From the NCBI GenBank assembly GCA_038326775.1, contig JBBQKJ010000004.1, positions 8,532-72,531 of the forward strand: a stretch of 64,000 nucleotides of DNA. Reading direction: 5' to 3'. Below are positions 9,106 to 63,680 of this stretch, piece by piece. The position numbers and the translations under genes were made by a program. Position 1 is the first letter of the stretch, and each line of letters starts with the position of its first letter. The notes beneath the pieces were generated by a model that saw only the letters and a list, made by a program, of their open reading frames with translations, was not told the DNA's origin and ran no database searches. This DNA comes from Candidatus Geothermincolia bacterium. GTDB lineage: Bacteria > Actinomycetota > Geothermincolia > Fen-727 > Anoxymicrobiaceae.

Positions 9106-12100
9106 TTAGAACGAAGCGGGGCGCCCCCCGATGGTGTCCGTGCCCGCGGAGCGGTTGTCCCAGTACATGGACCTCTCCACTATCACGCCGTGCGCCGCCG
9201 TCAGGCTCTCGACCTTGATGCCCGCGCGGTCGTCGGTGATGTGTTCGGCCATGTCATACGTCCTGCGCGAGTTGGCCGGTACCGTGTCGGTGAACGTCTT
9301 GTTGCCGGTCCCGCTGTTGTTGAGGTAGGTCAGCCGCACCTTCACGGGTACGTCGTTGGGGTTCTGCACCAGCGTCCAGGTCTCGAACGTCCTCTCGAAG
9401 CCGTGGCCGCTCTGCCCGTCCGGCAGCCACCACTGCGAGGCCGGCGCGGACGCGCCGATCGAGTCGTGGCACGCTTCCCCAAGCCCTGCGTCCCAGTACA
9501 TGGCACGCTCGGCGATAACGGGCAGGTTGCTCCACACGCGGGTCGAGACGTCCACCCCCGGCAGGGCGTCGTTCACCCTCACTGTCCTGCGGCTGTTGGC
9601 CGGCACGGTCAGCGGCGGCTGTGCGAACTTCCCGCCCGGGGTCATGTAAGTCAGGGTGACCTGCGCGTCGGCCGGGTTCGGGTTCTGCACCAGCACGTAT
9701 GTTGTGAATCCCCACGCCGTCGAGCCCTCGGCCAGGTAGTAATCGGTGGCCGGGTCTGTCACGCCGATGGAGTTATGGCCCTCGCGCCTGTTGTTGCGGT
9801 ACATGGAGCGCTCGGGGATCACCGGCACGTCCGAGGCCACCTTGATGGAGGCGTCTTTCGCGCCGATGTCGTCGGCCATGTTGAAGCTCTTGCGCGAATG
9901 CGCCGGAACCGTCTTTTTTACCGTCTGCTGTCCCAGGCCGTCGGTCATGTAAGTTACCTGGCAGGTGGCGTCGGTCGCTCCCGGGTTCTGGATGAGCAGC
10001 CAGCACTCGAATCCCCAGGCCGAGGAACCCTCGGCCATGTACCACGTCGTTGCCGGGGCGGTCACCCCGATCGAGGAATGGCCCTCCGCTCCCGCGGCGC
10101 CTTCCCCACGCCAGTACATGGTGCGGTCGGCGGCGATGGTCTTCCCCTCGAGGCACTCCACCTTTGTCGAGAAGTCGGAGAGAAGTTCGTCCTCGTTCAT
10201 CGGGTTGATGGTCACCCGGCTCTCGGGCGGCATCTTGATGTTAGGCCTGCCCACCGGCCCGCCGGGCGTGTAGTAAGTGACCTTGACCGTCACCGCCTCG
10301 GCATTGGGATTGACGACGGAGATGTTTGTGTCGAACCCCCACGCCGTCGAGCCCTCGGCCAGGTACCACTTTGAAGATATCGACGGCGGTGGAGGCGGCG
10401 GCGGGGCTCCGACCGTGAACCCGTCTTTGAGCGGTATCGGAACCTCGGTAGCAGAGGTGACGCTCACGTCCCTCAGCCCCAGTTCGGCTCCGGGTTCCAC
10501 TCGGATCCGGGCTAAGACGTGCGTGTTGTCTACGACCCGCTGAGATCCTGGAACGATCGACACGCCCTCGCCCAGCGACACCACCGGCGTGGAATCGGTG
10601 AAATGCGTGTAGCCTCCTATTATCTGCGCGTCGAGGGTGTCCCCCGGGTTGCCCCATTCGGGAACGCACGCCTTCACGTACGGCGGGTCGGCGAAGATGA
10701 TAGTGCCGCTGTCGCCTACCGCCCATGCGTCGTTGGCGTCGAAGGCGAAGACGGCCCTCAGAGTATTGGTCGTCGGACTCGTCTGCGGTGTCCAGGTGGC
10801 GCCGTCGTAGAAGAGAATCGTGCCGGCTGCCCCCACCGCCCAGACGTGCGTGGCGTCGGCGGCGGAGACCCCCAGGAGGTTCTGCGTCGTTCCACTGGCC
10901 TGCGTCTGCCATGTCGTCCCACTGTTGTTCGTGTACCTGATGGTACCGCCGTCACCAACCGCCCAGGCAGTGGTAGTGTTGAGGGCTTTGACAGCCCGGA
11001 GGGTATTAGGGGTGTTGCTTGTCTGGGGGCTCCAGTTCGTGCCAGCGTTAGCCGTGTAAAGTATCGTTCCGGCGGCGCCCACCGCCCAGGCCGTTGTGGT
11101 GCTTGCGGCCGAAATGCCGTAGAGGGCGTTCGTATTGCTGGTCACCTGCTCCGTCCACGCGCTCCCGTTGTAGTAACGTACCCTGCCATTATCCTGGCCG
11201 GCCCAAACCCGATTGGCCGCCGCTGCCGCGATGCAGTAGAACGTGCGGCCGGTGACGGATATCGCCGAAGACCAGGCTGACCCACTCCACTTCCTTACCA
11301 GGCCGTTACATGAAGCCCAAGCGTTGGCTGAGTCGAAATATGCCAGTCCGTAGACCGTGTAGTTTCCGGCGTTCGAAGGGGTCCAGACTTCCCCGCCGTC
11401 CGCAGACATCTGCACGTTGCGGTAAGTTGCGCTCACATAAGCCCCTCCCGCCATCACGTTGTCCGCGTCGCGGCCGCTGACCGCGTTCAGGGCGCCCGTC
11501 GTGCCGCCTGTTCGCGGAGTCCAGGTGCCGCCCGTGTTGGTGCTGGTGAGCACCACCTCGTCGCCGGCGCAGTATATGGTCGTGGTGCTGCGCGCCCAGA
11601 CGTCGCAGATATCCGAGGTGGTGTTGCTCGTCTGCGGCGTCCAGCTAGAGCCGTTGTTAGTGCTGTACCGTATGTTGCCGTCCCATCCGACGACCCACAG
11701 CCGCGTCGAGCTGATCGCGCTGACGCTGGCGGGCCAGTACTCCCCGGTCATTATGGGGGTGTACGAGGCGCCGCCGTTGGTGGAGCGGAGCACCGTCCCG
11801 TCCCAGTCCACGACGAAGACGTTGCTCGCGCTGTACGCCGAGACCGCCATCGGCGCCCGGGTCGTGTCCCTCAGGCTCCAGGTGCTGCCGTTGTAGAAAA
11901 GCGTCCTGCCCGCGATGGGAAGCGGGGCCTGCCCCACGACCCAGACTGCGCTCGCGCTGTACGCGAACACGTCCATGAAGCCTCCGGTGTCGTAGTGCTG
12001 TTCGACGTGCCAGCCGCTGGCGTCCCTGTGCAGGACGAGCGCGTGGCTGAAGCCGTCGTAGCCCCCCACCGCGTAGACGTTCGTGTTGCTCAGCGCCGCG

Positions 12101-12507
12101 ACCCCCCAAAGGTCGTAGCCGTAGCCGGTGTCGGGCGCGGTCTCCGCGGTCCAGGTGGCGCCGCCGTTCGTCGTCCTGAGGATGGTCTTGCCCTCGCCGA
12201 CGGCCCAGACGTTGCTGGCGTCTATCGGGTCGACCCCGTAGAGGCTCGCGGTGGTGCCGCTCGCCTGCTCAACGAGCCTGGACCCGTTCCAGAGGATGAC
12301 CCTGCCGTATTCTCCGACCGACCAGACCGTGGAAGTGCTGAAGGCGGACGTGGAGAACATCAGGTGCCCTTTCGGCAAGGGGTTCTGCCAGACCCAGGTG
12401 TAGGTGCCACCCGTCGCCGCAGAGGCGGCGCCTGCCGAGACCAGTAGCGCCAGCAGTACCAGCATCACTGCCAGACCCGCGGCTGCGTTTCTGCTTATCC
12501 GGAACAT
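9106..12507 (-). CDS. Large secreted protein: YCF48/BNR-like beta-propeller repeats, IPT/TIG-like domain, Pro linker, four WYLAEG (DUF5719-type) repeats
   Basis: Signal peptide from ATG 12507 (SD GAGAGG); repeated W..Q.S.T...L..V units; PPPPPPP linker; four WY(L/M)AEG / WWLPDG...ER.MY(W) repeats at the C-terminus. Confidence 0.85.
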   Translation of the reverse strand: MFRISRNAAAGLAVMLVLLALLVSAGAASAATGGTYTWVWQNPLPKGHLMFSTSAFSTSTVWSVGEYGRVILWNGSRLVEQASGTTASLYGVDPIDASNVWAVGEGKTILRTTNGGATWTAETAPDTGYGYDLWGVAALSNTNVYAVGGYDGFSHALVLHRDASGWHVEQHYDTGGFMDVFAYSASAVWVVGQAPLPIAGRTLFYNGSTWSLRDTTRAPMAVSAYSASNVFVVDWDGTVLRSTNGGASYTPIMTGEYWPASVSAISSTRLWVVGWDGNIRYSTNNGSSWTPQTSNTTSDICDVWARSTTTIYCAGDEVVLTSTNTGGTWTPRTGGTTGALNAVSGRDADNVMAGGAYVSATYRNVQMSADGGEVWTPSNAGNYTVYGLAYFDSANAWASCNGLVRKWSGSAWSSAISVTGRTFYCIAAAAANRVWAGQDNGRVRYYNGSAWTEQVTSNTNALYGISAASTTTAWAVGAAGTILYTANAGTNWSPQTSNTPNTLRAVKALNTTTAWAVGDGGTIRYTNNSGTTWQTQASGTTQNLLGVSAADATHVWAVGAAGTILFYDGATWTPQTSPTTNTLRAVFAFDANDAWAVGDSGTIIFADPPYVKACVPEWGNPGDTLDAQIIGGYTHFTDSTPVVSLGEGVSIVPGSQRVVDNTHVLARIRVEPGAELGLRDVSVTSATEVPIPLKDGFTVGAPPPPPPPSISSKWYLAEGSTAWGFDTNISVVNPNAEAVTVKVTYYTPGGPVGRPNIKMPPESRVTINPMNEDELLSDFSTKVECLEGKTIAADRTMYWRGEGAAGAEGHSSIGVTAPATTWYMAEGSSAWGFECWLLIQNPGATDATCQVTYMTDGLGQQTVKKTVPAHSRKSFNMADDIGAKDASIKVASDVPVIPERSMYRNNRREGHNSIGVTDPATDYYLAEGSTAWGFTTYVLVQNPNPADAQVTLTYMTPGGKFAQPPLTVPANSRRTVRVNDALPGVDVSTRVWSNLPVIAERAMYWDAGLGEACHDSIGASAPASQWWLPDGQSGHGFERTFETWTLVQNPNDVPVKVRLTYLNNSGTGNKTFTDTVPANSRRTYDMAEHITDDRAGIKVESLTAAHGVIVERSMYWDNRSAGTDTIGGRPASF

Positions 12508-12635
12508 CTCCCAACCTCTCTCACGCGTCGTTTCTCCACACCATCCATAACGCCGGCGAAGGCCTCCGGGAGCCTTCATGCCACATCATTAACAGTATCG
12601 GCAACCAGCCTCAACCACGATAACCTCAAAAGCAG

Positions 12636-33015: not shown

Positions 33016-33810
33016 ATGACGCTGAAATCCATGGAGATACCGGCCGGCCTCGATGTCATGGAGGACGGCAAGCCGTTCTTCTTCGAGGGCGGGAAAACGG
33101 GAGTCCTGCTGATACACGGTTTCACCGGGACCACCTCGAGCATGAAGCCGATGGGCGAGTACCTCTCCGCCAGGGGCCTGACCGTTCTCGGGCCCAGGCT
33201 CCCCGGCCACGGGACGGACGTAAAGGACCAGGGACGCTTCACCTACAACGACTGGATAGCCACTGCCGAGACGGCCCTCGCCGAACTCCAGGGCATGTGC
33301 GACACGGTTTTCGTTTCAGGCCTCTCGATGGGAGGGACGCTCACCCTGTACATGGGTGAGCAGCACTCCGATACCCTGGCTGGCGTCATGCCCATCAGCG
33401 CCCCGGCGGTGCGCCTGGCGCAGGGCGCCCAGAACGGGCTGCTGAAGCTTATCCCGGTGCTCAAGCATGTCATGAAGACGTTCCCGGGGCCCGGCAACGA
33501 CCTCAAGGACCCCGGGGTCACAGAGGTGGCATACGAGAAGCTGAACACCAGCGCGCTTCACGAGCTTACCAGGCTCATCAAGTACGTCGACAGCAACCTG
33601 GGCAGGATAACCGTCCCGATCAGGATATTTCATTCGCGTGACGACCACGTCGTCCCGCCGGAGAACGCGCCGTACATCTACGAGCACGTCAGCTCTACGG
33701 ATAAGGACCTCGTGTGGCTCGACAACTCCTACCACGTCTGCACCCTGGACTTCGACAAAGAGAAGATATTCGAGACTAGCTACAACTTCATCCAGGGCAT
33801 CGCCGGTTGA
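33016..33810 (+). CDS. Carboxylesterase / monoacylglycerol lipase-like alpha/beta hydrolase
   Basis: LIHGFTG, PRLPGHGT, GLSMGG, DHVV, SYHVCTLD; ATG 33016 with SD GGAGG. Confidence 0.92.
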   Translation: MTLKSMEIPAGLDVMEDGKPFFFEGGKTGVLLIHGFTGTTSSMKPMGEYLSARGLTVLGPRLPGHGTDVKDQGRFTYNDWIATAETALAELQGMCDTVFVSGLSMGGTLTLYMGEQHSDTLAGVMPISAPAVRLAQGAQNGLLKLIPVLKHVMKTFPGPGNDLKDPGVTEVAYEKLNTSALHELTRLIKYVDSNLGRITVPIRIFHSRDDHVVPPENAPYIYEHVSSTDKDLVWLDNSYHVCTLDFDKEKIFETSYNFIQGIAG

Positions 33811-33898
33811 GCCGAGCCCGGCACACTGCCGGCGCCTCCCCCCGTTCAAGCCATTCACGGCGGCGCGGCCAGGCCTCGCAGCTAGCAGTAAACCGCTT

Positions 33899-35341
33899 AT
33901 GGGAATAAAGTCACGCTTCCGGAACATGAACGAGCTGCAGAGGAACACCTGGCTGACGGCCGTTGCCCTCTTCGGGGAGACCGTGCTGCTGTTCATCTGC
34001 ATATTCAGGGTGTCAAACGCCACTGCCCTGGTGATCCTGGGCGGCGCAGGCGTGGTCGTTTTCGTTTCGATGGTCACGTCCAGCTACTGGCGCTTCCTGG
34101 TGCTGGCCGCGGTCGTCGGGGCACTGGCGCTCGAACTCGTGCTCCGGGACGAGGGAAGCGCCCTCTATGTGTTTTCCGTCCTTGCCCGGTTCACGGTCGC
34201 CGGCCTGCTCATCACCTTCTTCGCCGCGATGCTTACCGACCTGGCCCACAAGATATATGACAACGTCCAGCACCTTGCCGCCCGTCGCAAGGCGGACGCC
34301 GCCAAGTTGAGCAGGTGGCTGGAGCGCGGAAACGCCCTTCTGTCGCTCATGACCGCCATGAGCACCGAGAACCGGCTCCAGGATATCTTCACGGTGGGGC
34401 TCGAGGAGGCCCGGAAGGCCTTCGACGCCGACTCCGGGCTCATCTACAGCGTGGACCGGGAGACCGGGCGGCTGTCCATAACGGGTTCGTTCGGCTACAG
34501 CACTGACATCCTGGACAAGATGAAGCGGAAGTGGGAGACGCGCGGGGATATTTCCTCATGCCTGGCGTGCAGCAGCATGGCGGCGGTCGAAGTCGATAAC
34601 CTCGCCACTGATAAGAAGTGCGAGAACCTGAAGAAGGTCGAATCGGGCTCAAGCATTTGCCTGCCCGTCACCAGCGGCGACTCGCTATGGGGGATCCTGC
34701 ACCTGCGCAGGGGGAGCCCCGGAGCCTTTTCGAAAGAGGACATGCAGCTCGCCCAGGCAATCACCTACCAGTTCGGGCTGGTGATGCATAGATCGTCTCT
34801 CTTCGAGCAGGTCAACCTGCTCGCCGTTACAGACCCCCTCACCGGGCTTTACAACTACAGGCAACTCGTCCACGACATGGAAAGGGAGATAGTCAGGTCC
34901 AGGCGTTACCGGCATCCGTTCTCTTTCATAATGGCCGATGTCGACTTCTTCAAGCAGATTAACGACGCCAGCGGCCACCTAGCCGGCGACGCGGTGCTGC
35001 GCGAGGTGGCAAGGGTCTTTGAAGCAGGCAGCCGCGAGGTGGACCGTGTCTATCGCTACGCGGGCGACGAGTTCTCGATACTGCTGCCCGAGACTGACGG
35101 GCCCGAGGCGCTTGAGCTAGCCGAAAAGCTCCGGCGTGAGATCGCCGGGATGTCTATGGTCGTTGTGGATGAGCCAGGGCCGCTGAAGATAACCATGAGC
35201 GCCGGCGTGGCCTCCTTCACGCGTGACAGCCTGGAGATGAAGGACCTGGTCGCCTCGGCCGACGAGGCCCTCTACGACGCCAAGCGCAGCGGCCGCAACC
35301 GCACCGTGGCTCACCCCGGCCATGAGACGAAAAAAGCCTGA
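33899..35341 (+). CDS. Membrane GAF-GGDEF diguanylate cyclase
   Basis: Four TMs, GAF, TDPLTG, RxxD I-site (REVD), AGDEF variant A-site. Confidence 0.9.
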   Translation: MGIKSRFRNMNELQRNTWLTAVALFGETVLLFICIFRVSNATALVILGGAGVVVFVSMVTSSYWRFLVLAAVVGALALELVLRDEGSALYVFSVLARFTVAGLLITFFAAMLTDLAHKIYDNVQHLAARRKADAAKLSRWLERGNALLSLMTAMSTENRLQDIFTVGLEEARKAFDADSGLIYSVDRETGRLSITGSFGYSTDILDKMKRKWETRGDISSCLACSSMAAVEVDNLATDKKCENLKKVESGSSICLPVTSGDSLWGILHLRRGSPGAFSKEDMQLAQAITYQFGLVMHRSSLFEQVNLLAVTDPLTGLYNYRQLVHDMEREIVRSRRYRHPFSFIMADVDFFKQINDASGHLAGDAVLREVARVFEAGSREVDRVYRYAGDEFSILLPETDGPEALELAEKLRREIAGMSMVVVDEPGPLKITMSAGVASFTRDSLEMKDLVASADEALYDAKRSGRNRTVAHPGHETKKA

Positions 35342-42698: not shown

Positions 42699-43442
42699 AT
42701 GAACGCAGAAAAACTGAAGGTGCTCGTTGTCGAAGACGAACCGCTCATAAGCGAGATGATAACCAAGAGCCTGCGGCTCGAGGGATACGTTGTAGAGTCG
42801 GCCGCCACCGGCGAGGAGGGCCTCAAGAAGGTCAAGGAGACTAACCCCGACCTGGTTCTGCTCGATGTCCTGCTTCCCAAGATAGACGGCTGGGAAGTCC
42901 TCACCCGCCTTCGCGACAGCAAAGAGAGCAGAAGCCTTCCAATAATCATGCTGACGGCCCTCGCCGACGAGAAGTCGAAGGTGCAGGGGCTTCGCGGAGG
43001 CGCGGACGACTATGTTACCAAGCCGTTCAGCGCGCTCGAGTTGATGGCCCGGGTCGAGGCGGTTTTGAAGCGCGCGCGCGCGCAAAGGCCCGCCCATCGA
43101 GACGCCGCCATGCCCCAGATACCGGCGCGCAAGGGCGAGAAGATATACCTGGTGAACGTGGACGACATCAACTTCATAAGCATCCAGAGGGAGTACACCT
43201 ACCTTCATACCGACAGCGACCGCTTTCTGACCAACCACACCCTGGCCGAGCTCGAGAGGATGCTTGACCCCCTCAAGTTCTTCCGCGCCCACAGGGGTTA
43301 CCTGGTCAACCTGCAGAAGGTCAAGGCAATCACACGCATAGGGTCCTCCTCCTACGAGTTGACCATGAACGACCCAGGCCAGAGCAAAATACCCATGAGT
43401 CGTCGCCAGAGCTCGGAATTGAAAAAAACATTGAACATGTAG
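42699..43442 (+). CDS. Response regulator, REC + LytTR (paralog of 15419-16180)
   Basis: VEDE, LDVLLP, MLTA, KPF; FFRAHRGYLVN; IPMSRR. Confidence 0.95.
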   Translation: MNAEKLKVLVVEDEPLISEMITKSLRLEGYVVESAATGEEGLKKVKETNPDLVLLDVLLPKIDGWEVLTRLRDSKESRSLPIIMLTALADEKSKVQGLRGGADDYVTKPFSALELMARVEAVLKRARAQRPAHRDAAMPQIPARKGEKIYLVNVDDINFISIQREYTYLHTDSDRFLTNHTLAELERMLDPLKFFRAHRGYLVNLQKVKAITRIGSSSYELTMNDPGQSKIPMSRRQSSELKKTLNM

Positions 43443-43523
43443 CTCTATCTTTGTTCAGTATCCCCGCTTATCCACCAATTACGCTGTTTACCCGTCTCTT
43501 TCGCCCGCAAACTGGTATTTCCA

Positions 43524-43552
43524 TTGATTCTTCCCCGTCCCGGGACCAAAAT
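43524..43552 (+). promoter_or_regulatory. Candidate promoter for the structured RNA
   Basis: TTGATT-N17-CAAAAT, placing a TSS near 43559. Confidence 0.45.
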
Positions 43553-43567
43553 GGTATCAGAGGTACC

Positions 43568-43923
43568 GCTTCTCATCCGACAGGCAGCCGGAAAGCCCGG
43601 CTTAGCCGGGAGAATCGGTTGCCAGTACCAAGTTCGGACAACCGGGTACAGCTCAGGGTTAAAGTATTTGGACCATCCAAATATCCCCAAGAGTTGCCGC
43701 ATTAGGTCTGATACGCCGATCTTGATCGGGACCCGGTTCCAAGGCCCGGTTGTCCTCTCCCCAACGCCAAGGTAGCTGTTTGTCGTTTGCTTATTAGGCT
43801 CCTTGCCTACCCCCATCGTGGAGTGTTACTTGTTTGACCTGGTGTGGCGATGGCGGGTTTATTCTCCTTTGTGTGTGACGATGGGGACCTGCCGCCTTAT
43901 GGCGCCGGAAGGTGATGAGAAGC
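43568..43923 (+). ncRNA. Candidate structured non-coding RNA of unknown family (~356 nt)
   Basis: 10-bp closing stem (43568-77/43914-23) plus nested stems of 11, 9, 8, 8, 6 and 6 bp; G-U pairs favour the plus strand; no credible CDS. Confidence 0.6.
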
Positions 43924-44021
43924 ATCCCTGAAGCACACCATGTTCAAGCTCGCGGCCGGCTCGCTCAAGTTATGAGAACGAAACCGGCCGCCTGAAGTTA
44001 CAGCCTGCCGGGCGTGAGCCC

Positions 44022-44207
44022 TCAGACCTTTATCACGATGCGGTGCTCGAGGAACGTTATCTCCTCGAGGGTGCCGTCGAACTCCTTCTTCTCTCCGAGG
44101 ATGTCGGTAACGCTGATACGGCCGGCCTCGCTCTCGACCAGGACGGCGTCCTCCATGACCAGCCGGTCGCCTTCACCGTCTCGCAGGTAAACGTTCGATT
44201 CGCACAA
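44022..44207 (-). CDS. cooT: CooT-family nickel-binding protein
   Basis: MCESNVYL...VMEDAV...DILGEKK...ITFLEHRIVI; TTG start at 44207 with SD GGGAGG. Confidence 0.88.
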   Translation of the reverse strand: MCESNVYLRDGEGDRLVMEDAVLVESEAGRISVTDILGEKKEFDGTLEEITFLEHRIVIKV

Positions 44208-44279
44208 GTCAATCCCTCCCAGGTCGTACGACGTTGTTCGGAGATTACATTGTAATAGATTTGCGGGGCGCGGCGGCAC

Positions 44280-61127: not shown

Positions 61128-63680
61128 TCAGAACGCCGAGGCGACCGAGTTGCGTCCGGTCTGTTTCGCCGCGTACAGGGCGAGGTCGGCCTGGTGCACC
61201 ATGGTGGTCTCCTCCTCGCAGTCCCTGGGGAAGGAAGCGACCCCCAAGCTGACGGTTACGCTCCCGCCTGGTACCTTCTCCTCCCCGGCAAAATGGAAGT
61301 CCGCCACGGCGCGCCGCACCTTCTCCGCCACCAACACGGCCTCGTCGGAGTCGGTCTCGGGTAGCACAACGCAGAACTCGTCGCCTCCATAACGGAACAC
61401 CTTGTCGGCGTCCCTGGTGCTGGAGTCGATGATGGAGGCTGTCTGCGAGAGGACCACGTCCCCCTGCTGGTGGCCCAGCGTGTCGTTGCAAGCCTTGAGG
61501 TTGTCCAGGTCGACCATGAGGAAAGAGACCGGCCTCCTGTAGCGTCGCGCCCTGCTGACCTCCTCGGAGAGGACAAACCCCAGTTGCCGCACGTTGAAAA
61601 CCCCCGTCAGGGGATCGGTAATAGCGAGCCTTTTGATCTCCTCGAAAAGTAAGGCGCGCTGGAGCGCGAGCCCCACCTGGTCGGCGAAGGCCATCGCAAG
61701 CTGCTGGTCCTCCTCCCCGAAAGCGTCCGGACGCTCACTGCGCACGTGGAGGACCCCCAGGGTCCTGCCCTCCGACTGCATGCCCACGCACATGACCGAG
61801 CCCCGGCCTATCCTTGCGAGGGTGCGGCAGGCGACCTTCGTGCTCGCCAGGTCGTCCACTCCGATGAGCCGCCCTTCAGAGACCGTCCAGCAATCCTCCA
61901 CCCTGGGATAAGGCGGAGAGCCAAGGCGCGCGAGGACGTCTTCACCGTAGCCGAACGACTCCACGCAGCGCATGGTGCCGTCCTTCTCGTCGATCCGGTA
62001 AATAAGCCCGAAGGTACAGTCGAACAAGTGGCGCATGCTGTCGAGCGTCAACCTCATGATTGTCGGCAGGTCGGCGGTGGAGCCGATCGCGTTCGTGAGC
62101 TGCACCAGGCTGGCCAACTGGGTGGCGTCCGCCTTTATCCTCTCGTGAAGGCGGGCGTTTATTACGGCGAGGGCCACCTCGTTCGCCACAAGGGTGAGCT
62201 GGGCCGCCTGGGACTCGTCGAACTCCCCCGGCTCCGTGTCGGTCGCGCACAGCAGGCCGCCGATCGCGCCGTGCATGTAAAAGGGCGCCATCAGCACGGC
62301 GCCCGCCGACCTGATGAAGTCGGGCAGAGCCCAGTTCGCGGCGGGGCTGCTCAAGCACATCGCGGGCGGCCTCTGCGCGAGGTTGTACATCTCCTCGAAC
62401 TCGCCCAGCTCGATGCCGCCATCCGGCGGGAAGGTGGTCCGCCTGGCCCCTCCCCCTATCATCAGCTTCGGGACAAGGTACGCCCGGCGCTCATCAAGCA
62501 GGAAGGCGGCGCAGCCGGACGCCCCCGTGTTCCTGGCCGCCAGCCTGCAGGCGTTCTCCAGGACCTGGCCTAGCTCCAGTGTCGAGCCCAGCTCGCGGCT
62601 TGCCCGGTAGAGCGTGTCGGCCTCGCTCCTCTTGCGCTGCTCTTCGGCGTAGCGCATGGTGTTCTCGAGGCCGGCCGCAGCCTGGGCCAGAATCGCTTTG
62701 CATATCCGCAACTCGCGCTGCGAGAAGGGGCGCCTTCCGCCGCGCCTCTCGACGGTCACTATGCCCTTGACCTCGTCGCGGATGGTTATGGGTAGGACCA
62801 TCAGGGCGCGCGGCGTGCGCTCTTCCGTCCCCTCGGAGTCGAGCGGCCGCTCGCCATGGGCGTCGTCCACCAGGAACGGCTCTCGTGTCTCCACCACGCG
62901 GCTTGCGACGTTGTCCGCCTTCAGGTCCAACTTGCCGGCCAGGAGCTTCCCCATGGCGGCATTGTCTCTCTCGGTAGTGCTCTTCGGCGCAGCCCACCGG
63001 CCGTCCGAGCTGACCAGGAAGGCGGTGCAGCGCCCGAGGCCGGTGGCTTCGCTGATGCCCTCGACCACCGTGCTCAGAAGCTCGTCCATCTCCAGCGTTG
63101 CGCCGATGGCGGCGGCTATGCGCGAGAGGATACGTGCTTCGTTCCGCCCCCGCCGCTCGCTCTCTGTGAGGTAGGCGGACACGCCGGCGATCGTCCACAT
63201 CAGGACCAGGCGGACCATTGCGTCGGCTATTATCGCCTTCTTTACAGCGGGGCCGTACCCGGCGAATATCGTCACAAGGTAAAGCGCCGTGAAACCCAGG
63301 GCGGCTATCGCGGCCGGCTTGTACCCGAAGCGCGCGGCGATGACTATGACCAGCACCGTGAGGATCCAGAACGCCTCGGGGATGAACCTGGGCCAGACAA
63401 GCAGGATTGCAAGCACCAGGCCGGCGTCAATGGCGGCGGTGATGTTTGCGACCTGGGCCGCGGCTCTCCGCGAGATCGAGCGGGCCCTCAGGTAGATCAC
63501 GGTCATGACTCCGCTGAAGAGAAAAGTGCCCAGCACGATCAGGAGCCTTGTTGCGAAGGAGATCTCCTGCCTGGGAAATAGCGGGAGGAGCACGAACGGG
63601 CAGATGAGGATGCAGATCGCCCACTGTGCGACCATCGCAAGGTCTTCGTTCGTGAACTGCCTCTTCACTCGCTCCCCCAT
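61128..63680 (-). CDS. Membrane triple-GAF GGDEF diguanylate cyclase
   Basis: ~6 TMs, three GAF repeats, TDPLTG, RDAD I-site, intact GGDEF. Confidence 0.93.
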   Translation of the reverse strand: MGERVKRQFTNEDLAMVAQWAICILICPFVLLPLFPRQEISFATRLLIVLGTFLFSGVMTVIYLRARSISRRAAAQVANITAAIDAGLVLAILLVWPRFIPEAFWILTVLVIVIAARFGYKPAAIAALGFTALYLVTIFAGYGPAVKKAIIADAMVRLVLMWTIAGVSAYLTESERRGRNEARILSRIAAAIGATLEMDELLSTVVEGISEATGLGRCTAFLVSSDGRWAAPKSTTERDNAAMGKLLAGKLDLKADNVASRVVETREPFLVDDAHGERPLDSEGTEERTPRALMVLPITIRDEVKGIVTVERRGGRRPFSQRELRICKAILAQAAAGLENTMRYAEEQRKRSEADTLYRASRELGSTLELGQVLENACRLAARNTGASGCAAFLLDERRAYLVPKLMIGGGARRTTFPPDGGIELGEFEEMYNLAQRPPAMCLSSPAANWALPDFIRSAGAVLMAPFYMHGAIGGLLCATDTEPGEFDESQAAQLTLVANEVALAVINARLHERIKADATQLASLVQLTNAIGSTADLPTIMRLTLDSMRHLFDCTFGLIYRIDEKDGTMRCVESFGYGEDVLARLGSPPYPRVEDCWTVSEGRLIGVDDLASTKVACRTLARIGRGSVMCVGMQSEGRTLGVLHVRSERPDAFGEEDQQLAMAFADQVGLALQRALLFEEIKRLAITDPLTGVFNVRQLGFVLSEEVSRARRYRRPVSFLMVDLDNLKACNDTLGHQQGDVVLSQTASIIDSSTRDADKVFRYGGDEFCVVLPETDSDEAVLVAEKVRRAVADFHFAGEEKVPGGSVTVSLGVASFPRDCEEETTMVHQADLALYAAKQTGRNSVASAF

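Follow-up and report, generated by a model that had tools for sequence, protein, structure and literature searches.

What lies in the 579-bp gap (43443-44021) that separates two convergent genes, one for a LytTR response regulator and one cooT-like, in a 64,000-nucleotide stretch of contig JBBQKJ010000004.1 (this whole stretch is called the window below, and all positions refer to it)? The initial annotation, made from the sequence letters alone, had seen no credible coding sequence there and proposed a structured RNA of about 356 nt with its own promoter, in which a 10-bp closing helix (43568-77/43914-23) would enclose four domains; a miniature inverted-repeat transposable element (MITE) was named as the alternative. 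Our analysis shows that 43559-43774 encodes a non-coding RNA that is stable and highly expressed and belongs to an undescribed family; it is transcribed from the plus strand and about 215 nt long (Table 1). The RNA is built around a hairpin module with an invariant 30-nt loop, which makes up its 3' two-thirds. The same module recurs in metagenomes and phages in copies of about 100 nt, here termed short forms, to distinguish them from the window RNA and its orthologues, the long forms.

Limits, expression and synteny of the RNA gene

In the relative represented by a 19.9-kb contig, the segment 43548-43786 carries one change, situated in a hairpin loop, against approximately one change per 15 nt in the flanking intergenic DNA and gene ends, and 43787-44034 is replaced by unalignable sequence; this pattern suggests that 43548-43786 is under purifying selection. 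An alignment of eight diverse orthologous loci is conserved from the -35 box (43524) to CCTCTCCCC (~43763), and not beyond. The sequence is also contained in 18 RNA-labelled runs from ice, freshwater, soil, peat and sediment. The evidence from these runs consists of assembled contigs, which carry no direction; they span 43566/43567 to 43753, 43762 or 43786 and nothing wider, and place the observed ends of the RNA at 43566/43567 and at about 43774. Library adapter stands directly before 43567 in one contig and 11 nt past 43762 in another, and its orientation at both ends fits a plus-strand RNA, given the usual stranded library type. Contig depth in one peat run is 94.6 for the RNA, 3.4 for cooT and 0 for the regulator gene, and none of the RNA contigs shows read-through from the regulator gene into the RNA. 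Relative to dinucleotide shuffles, the 436-nt region as a whole folds with a z-score of about -3.5 on both strands. The signal is located within 43559-43774, where z is -3.61 for the plus strand and -1.60 for the minus strand; the remaining part, 43775-44021, scores -1.74. The end of conservation, the limits of the RNA contigs and the folding signal therefore delimit a gene of about 215 nt, not 356, which corresponds to the 5' strand of the annotated closing helix, domain I and domain II. For this part a fold better than shuffles, a discrete plus-strand transcript, conservation in more than 25 orthologous loci, and covariation in relatives were all found, which are outcomes that the annotation had asked for in its checks. 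Its view that the gap holds no credible coding sequence also held: mechanical open reading frames (ORFs) of 83-123 aa are present, and the orthologues, 213-225 nt long, differ by non-multiples of three, so that no reading frame is kept among them.

As a conserved feature, the RNA of 356 nt is refuted, and we regard its existence as extremely improbable. Its closing helix is perfect in the window sequence, all the other helices of the annotation likewise exist at the positions given for them, and the z-score of the 436-nt region speaks in its favor. However, the 3' strand of the closing helix, GATGAGAAGC, is absent from all 24 of the other orthologous loci, in which the 5' strand is invariant; conservation stops at ~43765, the 3' part folds no better than shuffles, and the RNA contigs end by 43786. 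Domains III and IV, a pseudoknot proposed between TGGTGTG (43840-46) and CACACCA (43934-40), and an 8-bp hairpin at 43952-43991 are neither conserved nor part of the abundant transcript, and no abundant RNA contig covers 43775-44021. This region probably comprises the 3' region of cooT and a small separate repeat. The latter is domain IV itself (43797-43890), which is present only in the window and its closest relative (L173), where it is shortened at the same place, and is absent from the more distant orthologous loci; a second copy of 43797-43834, differing at three positions, is found in the organism A assembly on another contig, of 2 kb, and the stretch occurs once more in run X9.

The promoter recognized in the annotation, TTGATT-N17-CAAAAT, is kept as TTGA(A/T)n-N17-cATAAT in 25 loci, with an invariant TTGA, and is a sigma-70-type promoter belonging to the RNA gene itself. 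A generic consensus promoter scanner did not flag it, because it matches the consensus at just 8 of 12 positions. In the alignment of 25 intergenic regions the -10 box is followed by the invariant leader AGAGGTACCGCTTCTCATCCGACAG. The conserved boxes support the annotated transcription start near 43559, which fits RNA contigs that begin 14-15 nt 3' of the -10 box and 7-8 nt inside the inferred start. Extreme 5' ends can be lost in library making, and such loss, or processing, may account for the offset. Three further conserved blocks lie just upstream of the -35 box; their spacing is ~20 nt and they do not match a published LytTR consensus. LytTR-type binding sites are paired 9-bp repeats about 21 bp apart. 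The blocks are candidate activator sites, possibly for the neighbouring LytTR regulator.

The regulator gene is the immediate upstream neighbour of the long form in more than 25 loci, across which the regulator protein is 55-95% identical, and the distance from its end to the core is a constant ~241 nt in all long-form loci with enough flank, L127 alone being unclear in this respect. A regulator homologue at 48% identity has a different gene context and lacks the RNA. The long-form RNA is linked to the regulator gene, and of the two it is the more conserved. On the other side, cooT lies on the minus strand 3' of the RNA at a distance that varies from 158 to 3300 nt, and the genes inserted between the two in some loci are likewise on the minus strand. 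As the next genes are always on this strand, the window RNA is never a 5' leader. The whole element is present once in the window and once in the organism A assembly. Its place behind the regulator gene is the same in every locus, even where the regulator protein is only 55% identical, and only the ~100-nt core module recurs elsewhere. Being single-copy and syntenic behind the regulator gene, the element is not a MITE; the inverted repeat that this alternative invoked is not conserved, and we reject the alternative for the window locus.

The window derives from a metagenome-assembled genome, and near-identical DNA occurs in public sediment, aquatic, permafrost and soil runs. A search with the regulator protein against genome contigs matched only generic receiver-domain relatives. 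Homologues of the regulator are listed under Candidatus Anoxymicrobiaceae, Ca. Anoxymicrobium japonicum and Actinomycetota, which points to Candidatus Geothermincolia (Actinomycetota) as the probable host lineage of the long forms. The stop codon of the regulator gene lies inside a conserved hairpin (TGAACAtgtag...TGTTCA) that is followed by a T-run in most relatives; this arrangement points to an intrinsic terminator that overlaps with the gene's end. The start of the cooT-like gene was read from the sequence as the TTG at 44207, the ORF listing giving 44022-44279. By Pfam, the genes neighbouring the RNA locus encode the LytTR regulator, CooT, DUF4349 and DUF5666, and no gene for TnpB, IscB, an IS110 recombinase or a reverse transcriptase adjoins it. 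An omega RNA, a bridge RNA or a retron RNA, which would be expected beside such a gene, is not indicated.

The 4227 models of Rfam 15, which include RNase P, tmRNA, SRP, 6S, Ms1, raiA, OLE, ROOL, GOLLD, HEARO and riboswitches, gave no match at gathering thresholds in the whole 64-kb window, hence no tRNA, riboswitch or other known RNA at that score. A permissive scan (E up to 10) of 43350-44100 gave a single chance match to a small nucleolar RNA, outside the element, and five short-form loci yielded only a tRNA and one chance match. The absence of a known family that the annotation had supposed is thus upheld even permissively. The core sequence was not found in the literature searched, which contained no relevant publication, and on these searches the family appears not to have been described before. 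The annotated new class of non-coding RNA with its own promoter therefore stands as regards novelty, promoter, covariation and abundance, and falls as regards size and architecture. Regulator-linked small RNAs and promoter-proximal RNA motifs are kinds already known; unusual here are the use of one module stand-alone, as a leader and in phages, and the exceptionally long invariant loop. Several more specific identities were considered and dropped. The fold, which combines a hairpin at the 5' end and a second, variable one with a branched module, has unpaired ends and no rod with a closing stem, unlike 6S RNA. A tmRNA-like tag or mini-ORF (UUG CCG CAU stop) was considered for the loop; not all copies have it, and ribosome-binding spacing is lacking. 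A cobalamin or NiCo riboswitch, prompted by GGGGACCUGCCGCC and by the nickel protein CooT nearby, has no Rfam support.

Structure of the long form and its invariant loop

Over 20 long forms, a structure model in which the domain I outer helix, P1, P2, P3 and a possible pseudoknot (Table 1) were counted has 97% of its cells paired and eight compensatory pairs, and none of 500 shuffles was as good. Among the helices already annotated, the outer helix of domain I (43583-90/43616-23), the 11-bp helix P1, which is paired in 100% of cases, and the CCGATC/GATCGG hairpin, here P3, are each supported by two compensatory pairs. The critical departure from the annotation concerns the center of the module. 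There, the annotated hairpin TATTTGGA/TCCAAATA (43665-72/43676-83) shows no compensatory change and is broken in the orthologous loci L093 and L181, where the changes in its 5' strand are compensated in the partner 43712-14, i.e. in the alternative stem P2. The latter is 97.5% paired with two compensatory pairs in the long forms and covaries in 48 short forms too. RNAalifold applied to the long forms returned the nested fold of the annotation, whose central hairpin we rejected on covariation. In the pair counts for the annotated fold, two small helices were shifted by one column and their low pairing is an artefact, which leaves the contest between the two central stems untouched. The annotated CAGCTC/GAGTTG pairing, which never varies, is possible only as a pseudoknot.

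P2 holds the 30-nt loop at its apex, the most constrained part of which is GUUGCCGCAUU. A covariance model built from the short forms (R1) matches the window at 43663-43715 with an E-value of 6.5e-9. Upstream of the module, a small 5' hairpin appears in the minimum-free-energy (MFE) folds of the window and of L093, L139 and L181, and uses part of the 5' strand of the annotated closing helix.

Table 1. Features of the RNA locus and its surroundings (window positions)
Feature	Positions	Strand	Basis or remark
LytTR-type response-regulator gene	42699-43442	+	Pfam Response_reg and LytTR
Terminator-like hairpin of regulator gene, TGAACA...TGTTCA	43432-43457	+	conserved inverted repeat in 25 aligned intergenic regions
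Three conserved blocks CCGCTTATCC, ACGCTGTTTACC, CCCGCAAACTGG, ~20 nt apart, just upstream of -35	43464-43515	+	phylogenetic footprint
Promoter: -35 TTGATT 43524-29, 17-nt spacer, -10 CAAAAT 43547-52	43524-43552	+	conserved boxes
RNA gene, ~215 nt	43559-43774	+	conserved block, RNA contigs, folding z-score; inferred 5' end ~43559-60
Invariant 5' leader AGAGGUACCGCUUCUCAUCCGACA with small hairpin 43559-64/43568-73	43559-43582	+	invariant columns; MFE folds
Domain I hairpin, variable in length and sequence	43583-43623	+	absent (deleted) in L093
Module common to short forms, closed by P1 (43636-46/43745-55)	43636-43755	+	covariation and covariance model R1
Candidate pseudoknot CAGCUC.GGG (43649-58)/CCC..GAGUUG (43686-96)	43649-43696	+	always complementary, never varies
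P2 stem 43664-74/43705-14, holding the apical loop	43664-43714	+	covariation
Invariant 30-nt loop AUCCAAAUAUCCCCAAGAGUUGCCGCAUUA	43675-43704	+	zero changes across relatives
P3 hairpin CCGAUC/GAUCGG	43716-43729	+	2 compensatory pairs; pairs scored 43716-20/43725-29
Pyrimidine tail UCUCCCC directly after P1	43756-43762	+	common to short forms (CCUUCCCC/CCUCUCCCC)
Outside the RNA: domains III and IV, 3' strand of closing helix, pseudoknot partner, 43952-91 hairpin	43775-44021		not conserved
cooT-like gene	44022-44207	-	Pfam CooT; convergent with RNA gene

Short forms in metagenomes and phages

The 34-nt stretch 43670-43703 shows a ten-fold excess depth in some metagenomes, with unrelated flanks. 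The 20-mer ATATCCCCAAGAGTTGCCGC was recovered from at least 120 metagenome loci and two viral contigs, and a shorter sub-pattern adds a third viral contig; the matches fall in two contexts, namely those of the long and the short forms. In a short form, P1 (9-14 bp) is followed by an asymmetric internal loop, P2 (6-10 bp) and the conserved 30-nt loop, and the module ends in the tail CCUUCCCC or CCUCUCCCC. This consensus was derived from constrained single-sequence folds. A MAFFT alignment of these copies had the stems out of register, and RNAalifold therefore found no structure in it. A k-turn was considered for the internal loop and abandoned, as it fits one short-form subfamily and not another.

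Covariation in these copies is extensive. Across P1 and P2 of 48 short forms, 82% of cells are paired, as against 27-46% when the partners are slid, and 43 cells are changed on both sides, compared with 25 in shuffles (none of 500 as high). Many of the pairs, frequently in P2, are G-U pairs, valid on this strand only. The covariance model R1 gave 113 matches in 713 kb, including all long forms and eight copies without the exact 20-mer. As the latter were found independently of this sequence, they provide the least biased view of constraint, and GUUGCCGCAUU is kept in them.

A full promoter, TTGACC-N17-TAACCT or an extended TGnTATAAT, precedes each short form, and transcription is predicted to start 2-4 nt before P1. 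Similarity between copies is limited to about -50 to +70 around the core, with no longer common unit, and up to four copies occur on a single 35-kb contig. Most short forms stand before accessory or defence-type genes of their own orientation: the long ORF downstream is co-oriented with the short form in 33 cases and opposite in 13. The products of the downstream genes share no common metabolic theme: they include an ApeA-like HEPN protein, a KAP NTPase, AAA_15/AAA_21 ATPases, a SET-domain protein and methyltransferases and, by sequence inspection only, a large methylase-like protein, an IS21 transposase, lipoproteins and membrane proteins. The copies on the three viral contigs stand before mutually homologous ORFs; a lysin-like label for these phage ORFs was dropped, as it had no PHROG support.

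Several peculiarities of individual short forms may be recorded. A subfamily (loci L094, L110, L112, L142, L156, L164 and others) has a second conserved non-coding segment of ~110 nt, TTTGTGCTTACAGGACATAACCACCAGCGCG ... GGTAGTTATGT ... GTTGGAGGAGGCA, which lies ~10-130 nt after the tail, has stem potential of its own and stands before unrelated genes; in L112 this segment has no Rfam match. In L102 (1825-1897, 3748-5458) and L150 three short forms, of which one is degenerate, are clustered within 2 kb, with a tRNA gene upstream of them, in a layout typical of an integrated island. L088, L112 (353-465) and L175 contain an 11-nt partial duplication inside the loop (GCATTGGAGTTGCCAAGG), and the loop thus tolerates insertion after GCAUU. 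Large proteins built of FYFAEGT...ERPMYF repeats (DUF5719) are encoded in the window (9106-12579, minus strand), in L093 (10097-13135, minus strand) and behind the short forms of L121 and L151; this recurrence hints that long and short forms might belong to one lineage.

Proposed function and rival readings

The limits of the gene, its conserved promoter, the strand and abundance of the RNA, its stems and invariant loop, its synteny and the existence of the short-form family are observations. How these are best explained is a matter of weighing, and the reading that we favor, at about even confidence, is that of a regulatory RNA that acts in trans and binds a conserved partner through its invariant loop, the same module serving elsewhere as a leader. 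The loop would be the docking site for one conserved cellular partner, protein or RNA. In the leader copies, binding of this partner would set the expression of the gene behind, probably by means of a switch in which the purine-rich strand before the 3' half of P1 (GGAAGG/GGGAG) pairs with the tail (CCUUCC/CUCUCC). In one short-form subfamily, purine strands GGAAGG and GGGAGU, as read from the sequence, match the tails CCUUCC and ACUCCC, in what looks like an alternative hairpin excluding P1. The stand-alone long form, with no gene behind it, would act in trans by occupying or titrating the partner, or might act on other RNAs through its C-rich loop and tail, and its level could be set by the neighbouring regulator.

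Partial precedents for such an arrangement exist. EutX/Rli55 of Enterococcus and Listeria contains the element found in the eut leaders and titrates the eut response regulator. It is, like GlmY/GlmZ and CsrB in a looser sense, a trans-acting RNA with a protein-binding element that also stands in the mRNA leaders with which it competes. Here, too, one element is used both in leaders and in an abundant stand-alone RNA, and the latter is encoded beside a response-regulator gene. A feature of such decoys is also found here, in that the short-form model matches the long forms, with loop and tail identical in both. The differences are that the regulator here is of the DNA-binding LytTR type, not ANTAR, that one assembly has the stand-alone form only, and that there is no similarity in sequence or structure. 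RNAIII (agr, AgrA) and VR-RNA (VirR) share with our RNA the tie to LytTR, a promoter of their own that has spaced blocks upstream, C-rich stretches left unpaired and a length of a few hundred nt. They are not homologous to it, however; the gene described here stands tail-to-head behind its regulator with no agr-like or VirS partner in view, and the RNA has no peptide frame. EutX/Rli55, RNAIII and VR-RNA may be regarded as the nearest working analogues, the resemblance being one of logic only. The c-di-GMP-I (GEMM) riboswitch and orphan leader motifs resemble the short forms in being promoter-proximal modules of ~100 nt with covarying stems and conserved unpaired bases, and GEMM also in its several copies per genome before unrelated genes and in phage DNA. 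Here, in contrast, there is no Rfam match, a single 30-nt apical loop, no indication of a ligand, and a window copy that is not a leader. Finally, 6C/B11 RNA of Actinomycetota and RsaE/RoxS of Firmicutes are likewise small RNAs of Gram-positive bacteria that expose C runs, but they differ in fold and length, and their Rfam models do not match here.

Of the alternatives to a trans-acting RNA with a docking loop, a base-pairing small RNA of the RNAIII, VR-RNA or RsaE kind seems to us unlikely, though it deserves some weight. It would be induced by the LytTR regulator, its loop UAUCCCCAAG and tail CUCUCCCC would pair with G-rich ribosome-binding sites, and the short forms would be sibling small RNAs. 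LytTR regulators driving regulatory RNAs are established, with AgrA acting on RNAIII and VirR on VR-RNA, and the constant adjacency of the LytTR gene, the conserved spaced blocks upstream of the -35 box, the abundant, discrete non-coding transcript from its own promoter and the two C-rich unpaired stretches all fit this explanation. On the other hand, 30 invariant bases far exceed what a seed requires, the promoter looks strong and constitutive, and the short forms mostly precede co-oriented genes, as leaders do. A scan of the start regions of the 64-kb window for targets of loop and tail remained at chance level, its best result being a 9-mer plus GGGG inside a GGDEF gene. The window contains two GAF-GGDEF diguanylate cyclase genes, 33638-35341 (plus strand) and 61128-63680 (minus strand); positions ~61590-61611 in the second are complementary to the loop GUUGCCGCA plus CCCC, where about one match of such length is expected by chance in this amount of sequence.

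A riboswitch-like sensor has in our estimate only a small likelihood. In this reading a small molecule or ion would be bound by the module as its aptamer, the leader copies would regulate the genes behind them, and the window copy would be an orphan whose terminated product accumulates. Terminated riboswitch leaders are often abundant, covarying stems enclose conserved unpaired nucleotides, the module begins at the predicted transcription start of its promoters, several copies per genome precede varied genes, and the purine strand before the 3' half of P1 can pair instead with the pyrimidine tail. Yet these genes have no metabolic theme in common, the conserved part is one long contiguous loop rather than the nucleotides of a junction, and in no locus does a plus-strand gene follow the window copy. 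Even less can be said for a mobile, MITE-like repeat or a site acting at the level of DNA, where the 30-mer, with inverted repeats on its flanks, would be a spreading recombination or protein-binding site and the RNA incidental. The multiplicity of the core in metagenomes, with up to four on one 35-kb contig, its presence in phage contigs, and the proximity of some copies to a tRNA gene and an IS21 transposase gene recommend it. But the window contains a single copy, in a syntenic position; the stems covary and do not preserve a fixed terminal sequence, and their G-U pairs are valid on one strand only. Similarity ends at the borders of the motif with no longer unit, the promoter stands at a fixed distance, and the RNA is abundant. 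For the window locus this explanation is largely refuted, and overall we consider it very unlikely.

The proposal of a docking loop acting in trans has its own difficulties, which we set out together. The short forms were collected by an exact match to the core, and the apparent invariance of the loop is therefore inflated; only eight copies were retrieved independently of it. Evidence for the short forms as RNA is thin: the peat runs on L095 gave only the core of the long form, and the L094 runs, at depths of 2-3, are uninformative for their expression. The observed 3' end, ~18-20 nt after P1, has no U-run that would account for termination. Energy favors the nested fold that buries the loop (-84.1 kcal/mol, versus -76.1 kcal/mol with P1 and P2 enforced); since energy prefers this fold and evolution keeps P2, both may exist. 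The organism A assembly has the long form and no short form, and a pure decoy role for leader copies therefore cannot be general. Long and short forms were never found on one contig. Run X9 contains both at similar depth, which might point to one genome with both, and run X6 contains the long form only.

A more ambitious version of the trans-acting reading, which we put forward as doubtful, is that the module is a shared RNA control element linking the host RNA, the leaders of mobile accessory and defence genes, and phage genes to a single host factor. The abundant long RNA would set the level of the free factor, and mobile genes and phages would plug into this control or hijack it. In a still bolder variant, the LytTR regulator or the CooT-like protein might itself be the RNA-binding partner; if true, RNA binding would be a new activity for the LytTR or the CooT fold.

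The Candidatus Geothermincolia, anaerobic Actinomycetota that have not been cultivated, are widespread in peat, permafrost, sediments and the subsurface, and to our knowledge almost nothing is known of their gene regulation. The RNA described here is so abundant that small metatranscriptomes from five habitat types suffice for its assembly, and its single loop, its two stems and the one regulator beside it offer a testable handle. It joins the few RNA elements that serve both in cis and in trans, and the occurrence of the same loop before defence-type and accessory genes and in phage DNA points to an undescribed regulatory circuit.

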